NCBI RefSeq assembly: GCF_006345805.1
Contig: NC_043012.1
Location: 48,298,001-48,362,000, forward strand
DNA from: Octopus sinensis
Taxonomy: Eukaryota
DNA: 64,000 nucleotides
Reading direction: 5' to 3'
The translations under genes were made by a program, and so were the position numbers. Below the pieces are notes generated by a model. It made no database searches, was not told where the DNA came from, and saw nothing but the letters and a program-made list of their open reading frames with translations. The stretch's first letter is position 1. The number at the start of each line of letters is the position of its first letter. Shown here one piece after another: positions 8,219-63,573 of the stretch.

Positions 8219-9294
8219 GTATGTCAGTTTGATAATGACTAACAACGACGACAGGAAGAACAACCTAAAACATAACGACTATGTGCTGAACACAATGAAA
8301 TTTATAAAGCCGCAACAGTTGTTTTTAATTCTGACAGCAGTTTATTGTGTCATGGTAACATATGTAGTTTATTTATAATTTATGAAAACAAAAAACTTAT
8401 CTTGACGCTTCTATATGAGATGAGGTTTTAAAAATCTGAACGAAAAGATCATGTCCGGTATACAATCAAAATTTGTAAGATGGCGTCTGTAACTAGTTAG
8501 AGGAAACATTCACTTTTTATGAATGTCCGGAAGAAATGGTACCTAAGTGTAGTTTCTGTATTTTGAGGCAGATGAAAATTTCAGGTAAGACACAAAAATG
8601 CTCGTATTTTCTTTTGCCAATGGTAATTCAAAAGGAGTGATTCAGATTAGATAGTTAAGTCCAGAACTAGCAAAATAGCGAATGTTAGCGGCAGGATTTG
8701 ACGATTGGCTAATGCATCATAAGTTCATATTCTACCCAGACAGTCATTTTACTGCACAGAAGTTATAGTGAGATTGTTTTTTCATCTACCTGCGATGACT
8801 AAGTTTTTTCAGGGAAAAAGGAAATTGGTTAATATCTAAGTATTTGAGACTGGATAGTGACTCTAACCTTTTTGGGGAAGTTTATAGGTAATTGTATAAC
8901 TTCAGTAAATTGAATTATGGTATTCAACCTCTATCCATTTGCAACGTTGAATTATTTTGTAACTCTCTTCCTAAGCCCTCGTAGTGGTAAAACATAGTCT
9001 ACGATTGTTGTGTGGTCCTATTCGAGAATGACAGTTCGTTTTGCAGTCAGTTCACATGAAGACTGAAACTTCAAGTACAGTTAGGTGTCTCTCACTTTTG
9101 TCAAGCGTCTATAATTAATTATATGGCATCACTTAAGTTTGACAGCTGTTTCTGATGAGACAGACATGTCACCACAAAGAGAGTTAACCGGTGATTGGTT
9201 CGTTGCGATATAAAATCTAAACAATATAAAATGCATCATTTAGAAAAGCCAGATATTTCCTTGTAAGTATAAGTGATCAGTATAATCATAAGCT

Positions 9295-25717: not shown

Positions 25718-26430
25718 AGTAGTATATTTTTTATATCGTGCTTTCACTTCACTACCGAGCGCAGCTCTGTGTGCCTTGGGTATGAGCTGTGATTTGTTGT
25801 GATGCTCTGATGGTTACTGTATTGAAAGTGTTCTGCGTAGGATGTGTGCAATGCCTAGTAGTGCAATTTTCTTTATGTTATATGTGTTTGTAAGTCCTGG
25901 TGTTTTTGTTATGTATTTGTCTGAATATTTTTTAGCATGCCTAATGCACCTACTATGATAGGAATTGTTTCTGTTTTTAGATTCCACATACTAGTTACCT
26001 CTATTTCCAGGTCTTTGTATTTTGAAAGTTTCTCCATTTCTTTTAGAGACACGTTGTCATCTGCTGGTATTGATACATCAATTAGAAAGTATTTTGTTTC
26101 TTCTCTGACAACAATATCTGGTCTGTTGGCCTTAATTTCTCTATCTGTGTGTAGCGGCATATCCCAGAGTATGGTTGCTTTCTCGTTTTCTGTGACCTTT
26201 TCTGGTGTGTGCCTATACCATCTTTTTTCTGTTGTTATTCCATAATGTTGGCATAGCTTCCAGTGTATGTAGGTACCAACTCTGTCATGTCTGTGAATAT
26301 ATTCCTTCTTAGTTAGGACTGGGCAGCCAGAGATAATATGATTTATTGTTTCTTGTCCATCTCCACATATTCTGCAGTTACTTGTTATATTTCTTTTCAT
26401 TACATGTTTTTGGTAATTCCTGGTGGGAAT
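25718..26430 (-). mobile_element. 5'-truncated R4/Dong-type non-LTR retrotransposon (zinc knuckle, restriction-like endonuclease, 3' UTR)
   Basis: ORF 25909-26400 has the CCHC knuckle CRICGDGQETINHIISGC, RHD, and RPD...D...KY endonuclease motifs; (TAA)n on both sides. Confidence 0.92.
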
Positions 26431-26443
26431 ATTATTATTATTA

Positions 26444-32156: not shown

Positions 32157-32363
32157 TAATCCAAACATGAAAACACAAAGAGAAAACACAACAACGCGAG
32201 GACGTGGAACAAATATAGTATTATTGGACGCTCAGGAAGGAAGGGAAGAAGGAGGGTATTACGTTTCGAGCGGAGCTCTTCGTCAGAAACATAGGAAAAG
32301 GAAAGATCCAGAGAAGGGAAGACGGAGGAAAAAAATCGCCAACGGTACACACGCGGTCACATT

Positions 32364-32368
<5 letters not shown>
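32152..32368 (-). mobile_element. Small hammerhead-bearing element inserted in (TA)n, probably a Penelope-like pLTR fragment
   Basis: ~217 bp of complex sequence with (TA)n on both sides; contains the HHR at 32256-32290. Confidence 0.7.
32256..32290 (-). ncRNA. Minimal type I hammerhead ribozyme
   Basis: Minus strand gttt-CTGACGA-a-GAGC-tcc-GCTC-GAAA-CGTA-atac: intact core, 4-bp stem II, palindromic ACGT stem III, GUA site, stem I 3 of 4 pairs. Confidence 0.8.
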
Positions 32369-32422
<54 letters not shown>

Positions 32423-36870: not shown

Positions 36871-37571
36871 TGAAGAAGATCGCCATTGAGGTCAATACAA
36901 AATATTTGCTTGTTATCTACAATGAGAATCATAAGTTCGTTCTCGAATACTTGGGGCAGGAGGAAGTGACTTGATTTCCAAGAAAATCCCCCATCTGTAT
37001 CATCGACGCCAATGTTCCACATTTACTTTATTTTAATGACCCCAAAAGGCAAAGTCGACCTCGACAAGATTAGAACTCAGAATGTAAAGACGGACGAAAC
37101 GCCGCTAAGCTAATAATGGTAAAACAGCAACAAGCAGAATAACTCAAAAGCTCACTAGCTTGAATCTGGGTAATCGTGTTAAAGTCGAATATACAAAATA
37201 ATGTGCAGAGGTAGTTCTTAATTTTTTTTTATAATTTCCAGTCTGAGTGGGATGGAGTCAATCATACCTTAGCGGTAAAGGGAGGCAATGAGAGGGATTT
37301 AAGTATAAAATTTCTCGAGTTAACTAAAGCAAGGACAGTGTTGTCTTTGCTACAGGTAACATACAACTCGTTACGCGATGGTTGTTCTCTTACAAGGTGA
37401 GTCTGTATTTTACTGAAGAAGGTGTAACAGAAACCGAAATATATTGTTGTGTCACACGCCACTCTGAACACTATCGTTCAATTTTGTACATACGTATATA
37501 TATATGTGTGTGTGTGTGTGTAAATGTATATGTATATAGTGTGTGTGTATACACACATATATATGCATGTT

Positions 37572-48910: not shown

Positions 48911-48932
48911 CAAATACAAATGTATAATTATT

Positions 48933-49053
48933 TACATTATTTACATTTGACGGATATTTGTCCTCATCTTGTTTGTTGTTAACACAGAATTTCGGCTGAT
49001 ATACTCTCCAGCCTTCATCAGGTGTATTGGGGAAATTTCGAACCTGGGTTATA

Positions 49054-49097
<44 letters not shown>

Positions 49098-49180
49098 CAT
49101 TATTATTATTATTATCATTATCATCATCATTATCATCATCATCATCATCATCATCATCATTATCATCATCATTATTATTA

Positions 49181-49245
<65 letters not shown>

Positions 49246-49301
49246 TAGGTCACTGCCTAGAATCGAACTCGGAATCTTGGGGTTAGTAACTCACGCTCTT
49301 A
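48933..49301 (-). mobile_element. Composite of tRNA-like head, (AAT/GAT)n linker and hammerhead-containing tail
   Basis: Head 49247-49301 with B box GTTCGATTC; linker 49051-49246; tail 48933-49050, which recurs at 62054-62167. Confidence 0.6.
48982..49025 (-). ncRNA. Minimal type I hammerhead ribozyme, stem III degenerate
   Basis: ACAC-CTGATGA-a-GGCTG-gagagtatat-CAGCC-GAAA-ttct-GTGT: perfect stems I and II around an intact core. Confidence 0.75.
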
Positions 49302-49370
49302 GTCTGCTTGCTGTTGACAGCTGACACTTTCCATCATACCCAGCGAAATGAACAACATTTGTTTTCATCA

Positions 49371-49430
<60 letters not shown>

Positions 49431-49432
<2 letters not shown>

Positions 49433-49488
49433 CATCGAAAAATACATTAGAAATGAGAACTCAGGGGTTCGAAAGTTCCCCAAGACTT
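49431..49488 (+). mobile_element. Truncated fragment of the same HHR-tail family, in opposite orientation
   Basis: gaactcaggggttcgaaagttccccaagac matches the minus-strand aacccaggttcgaaatttccccaatac at 49024-49050; also preceded by (AAT)n. Confidence 0.65.
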
Positions 49489-49977
49489 AAATATAGAAGT
49501 GTATTACAAATATACAAATACATTAAAGTATATTTATTTTTTGGGGGGAGTCCTACGTAACTTATCACATTTCCATCACTGTCTCTCTAAAGAGAAGGAA
49601 ACGAGACTAGTCTTGTAAGAGTCATTATTTTAATAATGTTTATTGTTGGCAAAAGATATGTTCAGAAATTGTCTGTTTAAACAGATGGTGAAGTTTTATT
49701 TGTTTGCCAATTTTCCAAATCTTAAAAACATGCCCCATTAATAACTGACATCTATATTATTTGTTTTAGTTAGTTATTAGTGTATAAAAAAATAATATCA
49801 TTCAAGTCTTCCAAAAGTCGACTGTATCTAGTTTAAGAACTTAAGACCCGAAAACTGTCCGTTTTTACATGTACTGTTGTTTTGCTCTTTATATAAGATA
49901 CTTTTTTATCTTTTCCCTTTAATCGTTTTCAGAGTTAATTTTTATTCCATGAGTATTTGTATAACCATTTTTATCTT

Positions 49978-53879: not shown

Positions 53880-54125
53880 ATTTAAATTGATAGGGTCTTT
53901 TCTGAGGATATGGATAGCACTTATCACATGAATCTTTTGCATTTCCTTGAGACAAAGTTCGCTTGGGACGTTTTCTAAATATATCTGACTCCCATTCTTA
54001 TCATACCTAGGGCACCTTCAATAACAGGAACGGTTTTTGCTTTAAGATTCCACATATTTTGTATTTCAATTTCCAGGTCCTTATAGTTCCTAATTTTGAC
54101 AAAATCCTTTGCAGATATACTTTTT
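53880..54125 (-). mobile_element. R4/Dong-type LINE C-terminal fragment
   Basis: YKDLEIEIQNMWNLKAKTVPVIEGALGMI...EMQKI...AIHILRK. Confidence 0.85.
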
Positions 54126-61589: not shown

Positions 61590-62049
61590 AAATCTCAACA
61601 ATGGCTGAGAAATTCAGGATTCAAAGCAGAAACTGAAGAATTTCTACTTCCAGCACAAGATCAAAGCCTTCCCACCAGAAATCACCAACACCGCGTAATG
61701 AAAAGAAATACAAGTAATTGCAGAATATATGGTGATGGACAAGGAACAATAAATCAAACTGTCTCTGGCTGCCCAGTCCTGGCTAAGAAGGAATATATTC
61801 ACAGAGACGATAGAGTTGGGACATATATACACTCGAAGCTATGCCAACACTGTGGAATAACAACAGAAAAAAAAGATGGTGTAGGCACACACCAGAAAAT
61901 GTCACAGAAAATGAGAAAGCAACCATACTGTGGGATATACAAATACACACAGATAGCGAAATTACGGCTAATAACTCGGATACAGTTGTCAGGGATCACT
62001 AAGAAAAAAATGGTTTCTAATCAATGTATCAATACCAACAGATGACAAT
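61590..62049 (+). mobile_element. R4/Dong-type LINE, same family as 25718-26430 (5' part of a split copy)
   Basis: KSQQWLRNSGFKAETE...AQDQSLPTRN...MKRNTSNCRIYGDGQ...GCPVLAKKEYIHR. Confidence 0.9.
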
Positions 62050-62053
62050 TATC

Positions 62054-62167
62054 TACATAATTTACATTTGACGGATATTTGTCCTCATCTTAGTTGTTGC
62101 TAATACATTTCGGCTGATATAGCCTCCGGCCTTCATCAGGTGTGTGTCTTGGGAAACATTCGAACCC
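62054..62167 (-). mobile_element. Second copy of the HHR tail module (HHR motif ~62100-62143)
   Basis: ACAC-CTGATGA-a-GGCCG...CAGCC-GAAA-TGTA, followed by the same aagatgaggacaaatatccgtcaaatgtaaat as 48933-49050. Confidence 0.8.
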
Positions 62168-62189
62168 AACAAACTAATAAGAATAATTT

Positions 62190-63160
62190 CTAAACATGAC
62201 CTTTACAAGAAAACAATGGATACATAGATTGAAATCGTCAAACAAAAGCTACAACTGAAAACCAAACAACTGGCAAAATATAAAAGAACAAAAAAAAAAC
62301 GCTCAGCATTCCATATACAAAACAGTTTGCAAGAAGAACAGAAAATATTCTACAGGGAACTGGGGGAAATACCTTTTTCTGACAACACCTCCTCCCCACC
62401 AGCAAACTGAAGATTTTTGGAAAAAACATTTGGAGTAATACAAAGGAGTTTAATCAGAATGCACATTGGGTCAGGGACACAGAAGAGGCCAATGACCACC
62501 TTAAATATCAAGAATAGCAGGATATAACAACTGTTGTTTCTGGCTGAAAAGGAATACCTAATAAGACTTGACAGACTAGGGCAATACATCCACTGGAATG
62601 CTTGTAAATACTACAAAATGAAATCCCATGATAAGTGGTACAGGCACCATCAAGAGGATGTAGTAAATGGAGAGAGCGTCACCATCTTTTGGAACTTCCC
62701 AATACAAATAGAGAGAAAAATTGACTCCAATCGACAAGACAGTGTGATCAAGGACTGCAACAGATGGACTTAATAGATATGTCTGTCCCACAAGATCAAA
62801 ATGTTTCAACAAAGGAATACGAAAATCTTTCTCACTGAAAAGATCTGCAAATTGAAATGACAGAAATGTGGAAGGTTGGTACTATGATAATACAAGTAGT
62901 AATCGGTGCATTAGGAATGATAAAGAACGGAGCTGAGAATTATATAAAGCAACTCCTTTGTAACTCCAATCTCCGGGAATTACAAAAGAGAACCTTGATG
63001 GATACAGCCCATCTACTAAGGAAAGCACTCTCTATCTAAAATGGAATAAATGTGGTGACGCATAGCAAAACAAAAGTGTCCTTGCTACTCTTGACCTCCG
63101 GAGGATGCCCGGTACTAAGGCAACTGAAACAAAGTTATAAAGAAAGGAAAGCATTTAAAA
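62190..63160 (+). mobile_element. Different R4/Dong-type LINE lacking its RT domain
   Basis: Pre-RT EDFWK-type segment joined near 62533 to LAEKEYLIRLDRLGQYIHW...KWYRH...VVIGALGMI...LQKRTLMDTAHLLRKALSI. Confidence 0.8.
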
Positions 63161-63185
63161 GAAGAAGAAGAGAAGAAGAAGAAGA

Positions 63186-63219
<34 letters not shown>

Positions 63220-63284
63220 CGATGATGATGATGACGATGATGATGATGGTGATGATGATGATGATGATGAGAAAATATGAAAAC

Positions 63285-63573
63285 ACAAATAGAGATAACT
63301 CGTATGTGGATCCTAAAAACAGAAACAAACCCTATAATAGGTGCGTTAGGTATACTTGAAAAAATTTATGACAAATACATAACAAAAACACCAGGACTTA
63401 CGAATGAGTATAACATACAGAAAATAGCACTACTAGGCACTGCACACATCCTACGTAAAACACTTTCAATACAGTGAAAATAAGAGTATCACAACAAACC
63501 ATAGCACATACCCAAGGGACAGAGCTGCGCTCGGTAGTGTAGTCAAAGCACGCGATAAAATAAGACCACCGAT
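63285..63573 (+). mobile_element. R4/Dong-type LINE 3' end and UTR (3' part of the split copy)
   Basis: IEITRMWILKTETNPIIGALG...IQKIALLGTAHILRKTLSIQ; the UTR matches 25718-25815 in reverse; ends in (TAA)n. Confidence 0.9.

Follow-up and report, generated by a model that had tools for sequence, protein, structure and literature searches.

Locus in the window

The window analysed here is a stretch of 64,000 nt of Octopus sinensis DNA (NCBI RefSeq assembly GCF_006345805.1, contig NC_043012.1, positions 48,298,001 to 48,362,000 of the forward strand). Its locus 48928-49504 is one head-to-head inverted insertion of a Penelope element. The parts, together with a second fragment of the same family, are as follows.

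48915..48927, no strand: candidate target-site duplication, left copy (11 of 13 letters as in 49505-49517, by eye; tentative)
48928..49050, minus strand: tail module, the 5' part of the Penelope ORF up to its short 3' end (93% to a natural copy)
48981..49026, minus strand: minimal type I hammerhead with core and stems I and II kept
49049..49245, minus strand: (AAT/GAT)n linker, longer than the family median of 48 nt through expansion
49247..49301, minus strand: tRNA-derived head with a 5' truncation that has removed the A box; the B box lies at about 49270-49259
49302..49370, no strand: 69 nt at the joint of the two inverted arms, assigned to no part
49371..49430, plus strand: (AAT)20 linker of the opposite arm
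49431..49488, plus strand: start of the opposite-arm tail module, with the ORF ATG at 49453-49455
49486..49504, plus strand: long 3' end of the opposite arm, past an internal deletion (17 of 19 letters; weak, E 0.11 alone)
49505..49517, no strand: candidate target-site duplication, right copy (by eye)
62036..62166, minus strand: separate, more decayed tail fragment (83-84% alike to the window module)

The initial annotation had described, on the minus strand, a head without A box, an (AAT/GAT)n stretch and a hammerhead-like module, and all three were found at the places given for them. Read on this strand, the head (49301-49247) corresponds to positions 23-77 of a natural full head with an 87% match, and the module (49050-48933) displays CUGAUGA, a 5-bp stem II and GAAA. 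The first ~30 nt of the tail module, including the ATG, are deleted in the window copy, and its hammerhead has lost the NUH and the stem III palindrome at 48989-48986, where TTCT stands in place of the family's CGTT. The length of 118 nt originally assigned to the module falls short on both sides: its hammerhead motifs are present as described, but the family module extends ~30 nt further 5' and, optionally, ~30 nt further 3'.

The module had also been said to recur twice. The recurrence at 49431-49488 does follow directly on (AAT)20, but it lies on the plus strand, opposite to the first module. The other, noted near 62054-62167, was recovered at 62166-62036 (minus strand), where it sits within the remnant of an unrelated LINE (about 61596-63474). 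The locus has a short end at 48928 (minus strand), a long end at 49504 (plus strand) whose position agrees with the long-plus-short pattern of inverted pairs (see below), and 69 nt between the arms that matched nothing among 440 loci compared besides the window's own. The flanking 13-bp duplication is tentative since a script scored other AT-rich pairs above 48915-48927/49505-49517.

Head, linker and tail as one repeat unit

Head-(AAT)n-hammerhead is a real repeat whose head and tail form one unit. Their co-orientation across the linker, visible once in the window, proved to be the rule: a tail was present in 24 of 28 loci selected by the head, and a co-oriented head lay at most 1 kb away in 20 of 29 loci selected by the tail, with a median spacer of 48 nt. 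The window's own loci and a near-identical duplicate locus (L035) were left out of the linkage counts. Exact junctions of head end and tail start at most 120 nt apart number 952 in the 2.72-Gb genome, against 0 in the reversed control, and the long 3' end occurs exactly 1,875 times.

In 80 evenly spaced, unselected 10-kb stretches (799,700 nt), 7 heads and 11 tail pieces were detected. Chance co-occurrence is excluded because the 7 stretches bearing heads are the same 7 that bear tails (P 3e-10). Six of the 7 heads had a co-oriented tail (one 920 nt off), whereas the seventh was inverted relative to a tail. From these stretches the copy number is estimated at about 24,000 loci (95% range 9,600-49,000). 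That head and tail are two repeats inserting separately into (AAT)n arrays can be practically dismissed: although the window displays their link once, such arrays are frequent (87 pure ones in the same 0.8 Mb) and an unrelated LINE does enter these linkers, the junctions are fixed and in phase at all 952 places, heads and tails occupy identical segments, and there is no head-only family, LINE pieces following the linker in 5 of 11 tail-less heads. A parent SINE consisting of the head only was sought among these 11 and not found; they are broken copies, five of them interrupted by the LINE in the linker.

The intruding LINE (RT, zinc finger, (AAT)n 3' end), tentatively labelled Dong/R4-like, was seen in the element's linker at L012, L019, L040, L180, L417, L418, L425 and L433. 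The 98-100% likeness of its 3' ends among several loci marks it as younger than the element. This LINE type has also left remnants in the window, at 61596-63474 (plus strand), 25817-26442 (minus strand) and 53898-54115 (minus strand). Four loci (L188, L189, L191 and L192) represent a single insertion with its flanks in four repeats on C1, 95-99% alike, which is either a local duplication or an assembly repeat.

The autonomous element

Several heads have upstream sequence in common, and this sequence translates to an endonuclease-like C-terminus. When it was used as query, 30 loci were retrieved, in 29 of which the head lies ~18 nt beyond the match; exact junctions between ORF-spacer and head occur 189 times. 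The walk further upstream led to a reverse transcriptase (RVT_1, E 1e-9). In the near-full-length copy L249/L291 the end of the tail passes directly into the ORF, and the head recurs ~35 nt past the stop. The tail runs on into the ORF in most of L261-L290 as well, and the natural copies L276, L286 and L289 have tail and RT in one open frame. In L276 and L286 the frame opens with an ATG about 20 nt past the linker, spans the hammerhead and the tail and reaches the N-terminal domain; that of L286 includes the RT as well. The hammerhead "tail" makes up the initial ~52 codons of this ORF.

The element measures 2.6 kb and has a single ORF with a PLE-type RT; a fully intact version was not found among the copies examined. 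Copies diverge by 5-6% from the column majority, and the family has been decaying for some time. The same Pfam set occurs in 107 homologues, 5 of which carry PF01541. In the nearest protein (P0001; 49-55%) the hammerhead-encoded peptide is kept in frame. An Anolis protein (P0019), which may or may not be that of PAc (see below), is 32-40% identical (36, 40 and 32% in the comparisons), and pairwise identity was 40% to this protein versus 31% to another PLE family of the same genome. The labels Poseidon and Neptune-like are in part our assumption rather than taken from an RT tree. Pfam made no GIY-YIG call in the element family or in P0001; a motif-like C-terminal stretch, a candidate GIY-YIG endonuclease, aligns to homologues with E 2e-41. 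A genome search with the Pfam GIY-YIG model uncovered other PLE families, used as controls only, with a head or tail match in none of 30 loci. One of the PLE families of this genome (L295, L296 and L297) is young, with near-identical 781-codon open frames encoding RT and GIY-YIG, and possibly still active.

The ORF walk, the open frames and the homologues thus identify the apparent SINE as the pseudo-LTR, together with the start of the ORF, of an autonomous Penelope/Poseidon-type element. The original proposal that a SINE had taken its 3' end from a PLE is not supported, as head and (AAT)n belong to the autonomous element's own pseudo-LTR and the tail is its ORF start. We assign a probability of roughly 85% to the combined reading that the window carries such a pseudo-LTR and ORF start as a head-to-head inverted pair, the tRNA-derived head being likely an internal (probably Pol III) promoter.

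Insertion marks and proposed mechanism

The notion that PLE machinery produces these insertions was upheld by the position of the head past the endonuclease end, the continuity of tail and ORF, and the junctions themselves. The 3' ends cluster at tail positions ~145-155 (ORF nt ~123-129) and, ~30 nt further on, at ~176-185 (ORF nt ~157), and both kinds of end also appear as loose ends in raw RNA reads filed under another species label. We collected 69 head-to-head pairs, the window's loci and near-identical duplicates (16 loci) having been removed; a few loci give two nested pairs. A long end is combined with a short one in 63 pairs, while five have two short ends and one has two long ends; without the end-selected set the long-plus-short type accounts for 48 of 53 (P 7e-10 against 0.5). 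Flanking duplications of at least 8 nt were found in 56 of the 69 pairs (median 12) versus 28 of 400 shuffled pairs.

An element of the anole is reported to have two internal RT start sites and a 30-40-nt tail, with both strands being cut and a dimer predicted (PMC11167929). PLEs are known to carry a tail at only one end and to form inverted 5' copies (PMC8557442), and the octopus family displays both the optional 30-40-nt tail and the inverted 5' copies. If it behaves like the anole element, the RNA would start at the head, the protein would bind the ORF start and cut both target strands about 12 bp apart, and reverse transcription would begin internally on the RNA, at two sites separated by ~30 nt. 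Synthesis from these sites to the RNA 5' end would yield the ~300-nt solo copies that form the majority of loci; two cDNAs, one per site and strand, would yield the long-plus-short inverted pairs; and longer copies would stem from tandem RNA, with cDNA extending into the upstream ORF. The long-plus-short pairing and the ~12-bp duplications lend genomic support to a two-strand, two-site mechanism so far described in vitro for one element. Many copies in L264-L288 continue, after 120-600 nt of ORF start, with another piece of pseudo-LTR, a pattern suggestive of template switches from one element RNA to another.

Solo copies

Among 30 intact heads, 2 were joined to an ORF according to the script and 4 according to inspection by eye; exact 28-nt matches gave 189 ORF-joined occurrences versus 684, a ratio that is rough because the patterns differ in CpG. 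Solo and ORF-linked copies (85 versus 62 tails, 61 versus 49 heads) are separated by no diagnostic column, although with ~60-85 copies per class the power to detect a separate lineage is limited. The majority letter is the same at every column save one at the alignment end, and three columns reached p < 0.01 without a real change. Divergence is 4.8 versus 5.2% and 7.9 versus 7.8% for ORF-linked versus solo copies. Given the lack of diagnostic columns, the equal divergence and the broken nature of the tail-less heads, we interpret the solos as short copies made from RNA of the element itself. They appear to have no sequence lineage of their own, and some of them may have been re-copied.

A true Penelope-dependent SINE, having its head in common with the autonomous element but with solos re-transcribed by Pol III, copied in trans and forming lineages of their own, would fit the absence of the ORF from most loci and the presence of A and B boxes without a T run in every solo. 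We regard it as rather unlikely, in view of the missing diagnostic columns and the equal divergence. Moreover, solos end at nt 125-157 and would lack a template portion required in the anole element, where the template must reach ORF nt 172, past the RT start sites (PMC11167929). As in SINEs, the head is tRNA-related and has A and B boxes; a SINE, as a non-autonomous family, has only its 3' end in common with its partner, whereas here the head is also part of the coding element.

The tRNA-derived head as a likely promoter

In its full form, the head carries A and B boxes spaced as in a tRNA and aligns along its length with tRNA genes of the same genome, the parent tRNA being not assignable, with Arg, Thr and Lys scoring alike among 20 distinct genes. 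ARAGORN made 9 calls from 30 heads at relaxed score and found no tRNA in the window at default. Rfam contributed no tRNA or hammerhead among the best 150 of 210 window matches, nor in all 82 matches for four intact copies; both labels rest on motif anatomy and alignment. Variable columns of the unit are mostly CpG, and head columns conserved below 85% are CpG sites except one. Heads not linked to an ORF begin within a narrow zone about the tRNA +1: 73 of 117 begin at or before head position 8 and only 3 extend more than 4 nt upstream; the ORF-bearing L276, L278 and L283 likewise begin at the head. This clustering is no clean proof of a start site, because a hairpin at the head's 5' edge can cause cDNA fold-back.

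By column majority, T4 runs number 0 in 2,289 ORF columns plus head and tail, and none occurs in linker or spacer. Two other PLE families of the genome, of equal T content, have 9-13 per ORF, and the median in 69 related ORFs is 3.8 per kb, 2 of the 69 having none. Decayed copies contain 0.37 per kb versus 4.5 in a control PLE family. For one master copy the chance of zero T4 runs is 0.03 under synonymous shuffling and 0.004 under a base-composition null. G4 runs are absent as well, and phenylalanine is low at 2.2%, as it is in 5 of 106 homologues. We consider the T-run signal modest.

Three raw RNA runs (other species label, unstranded in effect) had 74-81% of reads continuing into unlike sequence and no pile of starts at the head; they mirror genomic copies within host transcripts and are uninformative on polymerase or strand. 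A search for the A/B-box pattern in related elements of other animals, many of whose loci are short, gave a hit in 1 of 69 loci, in a tandem repeat and not in a head. Judging from the boxes, the 5' ends and the absence of T runs, Pol III is likely to transcribe the short RNAs. Whether this extends to the whole 2.6-kb element, ORF included, as a Pol III unit driven by a captured tRNA promoter, free of T4 terminators and yielding an uncapped RNA that would be translated, is doubtful. If so, the point of Pol III termination would not matter to the element, since its reverse transcription has an internal start. The element would then unite the roles of SINE and LINE and could serve as a model for the origin of Sm-alpha-like elements, and cap-independent translation of a retroelement mRNA made by Pol III would become directly testable.

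The alternative, that the pseudo-LTR has captured a tRNA or SINE piece, now a fossil, as its head and that transcription is by Pol II, with short copies ending at the head on account of a start site or the hairpin, deserves about as much, or as little, credence. The protein needs translation, which favours a capped RNA, and T runs are scarce also in close relatives that have no visible tRNA head (0 in 1.9 kb of L301; 1 in 2.3 kb of L307). Against it speak the A and B boxes kept at tRNA spacing in a head that varies almost only at CpG sites, the lack of T4 in head, linker, ORF and spacer, and a 5' boundary ~13 nt ahead of the A box, a distance at which Pol III starts lie as well. Its precedent is Drosophila Penelope, for which an internal LINE-like promoter, and not a tRNA-derived one, is described (PMC2377424).

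Relation to known elements

The octopus repeat is a Penelope-type element whose mechanism is known, the tRNA-derived 5' end being its unusual part. As in PAc, the Poseidon element of Anolis carolinensis, the hammerhead overlaps the ORF start and a 30-40-nt tail is optional, and two RT start sites early in the ORF and cutting of both strands are likely here too (PMC11167929). PAc has RT followed by GIY-YIG, and the octopus ORF would have this domain order if its candidate GIY-YIG, based on motif and alignment, is one; in contrast, the account of PAc describes no tRNA-derived head or (AAT)n linker, and its ATG is placed within stem II rather than before the hammerhead as here (PMC11167929). Features of PLEs in general are 5' truncation, partial tandems, inverted 5' copies, a tail at one end and a minimal hammerhead with palindromic stem III (PMC8557442, PMC4209133).

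Sm-alpha/Sj-alpha of Schistosoma similarly combine a tRNA-related head, a hammerhead and high copy number; they are apparently transcribed by Pol III, which for the octopus repeat we infer, and are described as tandem repeats released by self-cleavage, with no coding element having the same head (PMC6765202, PMC2770079). In contrast, the octopus copies are dispersed or in inverted pairs, and a coding element has the identical sequence as its pseudo-LTR. Like animal non-LTR retrozymes they are non-coding hammerhead repeats from PLE pseudo-LTRs with many monomers, but retrozymes are defined by direct tandem arrays (bioRxiv 10.64898/2026.07.22.740005), whereas the octopus loci examined hold single copies or inverted pairs. 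In a term search of that preprint, neither tRNA nor promoter, polymerase III or molluscs turned up. The literature searched, including the portions available of PMC13282606 and PMC4758252, described neither a tRNA-derived head in a PLE pseudo-LTR nor a Pol III-transcribed PLE; Repbase and Dfam were unchecked, and the family may already be in them or in the supplements of PMC13282606 or PMC4209133.

Unusually for a coding Penelope element, its 5' start is formed by a tRNA-derived head with A and B boxes, and T4 is absent from its 2.6 kb. The repeat may, however, be one of the SINEs reportedly covered by a 1994 paper on octopus. It illustrates how an autonomous element can directly give rise to SINE-like hammerhead repeats, and the same origin is worth seeking in Sm-alpha. 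Caution is advisable with high-copy "SINEs" in such genomes, which can be Penelope ends.

The hammerhead

In the copies not chosen by the window tail, an intact hammerhead (core, both stems, NUH) was seen in 16 of 54; copies chosen by the window tail had 7 of 29 intact and are enriched for the window mutation. The commonest filling after GAAA is CGTT (10 of 26 copies with readable core), which provides GUU at the cleavage site and a four-base palindromic stem III. NUH and stem III are present in the family in this way, but the window copy has neither. By these motifs, the family hammerhead is predicted to be a minimal type I ribozyme with palindromic stem III, of the dimer type that is typical of PLEs (PMC4209133). 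Its core starts at ORF nt 35, with cleavage predicted after nt 70. Single-strand folding of hammerhead and head gave z scores of -1.7 to +0.5, which is uninformative for a minimal ribozyme.

The initial proposal that self-cleavage serves mobility gained no support. Only 6 of the tallied tail matches begin at positions 96-99, beside the cleavage site, where the palindrome also causes inversions, and the three raw RNA runs (other species label) contained no read pile at this site. The anole element does not need cleavage for insertion in vitro (PMC11167929). Cleavage by the octopus hammerhead would require dimer formation or assistance by the protein, and self-cleavage is probably dispensable for insertion.

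A second family of minimal hammerheads, with a CUGACGA core and a short stem II, is represented in the window at about 32250-32400 (minus strand) and in L078 at 8850-9080 (plus strand). Its members have pyrimidine-rich flanks in common and no tRNA head nearby, and probably constitute the end of another PLE family. A further hammerhead-like core with a possible stem I lies at 37400-37460 (plus strand) of the window.
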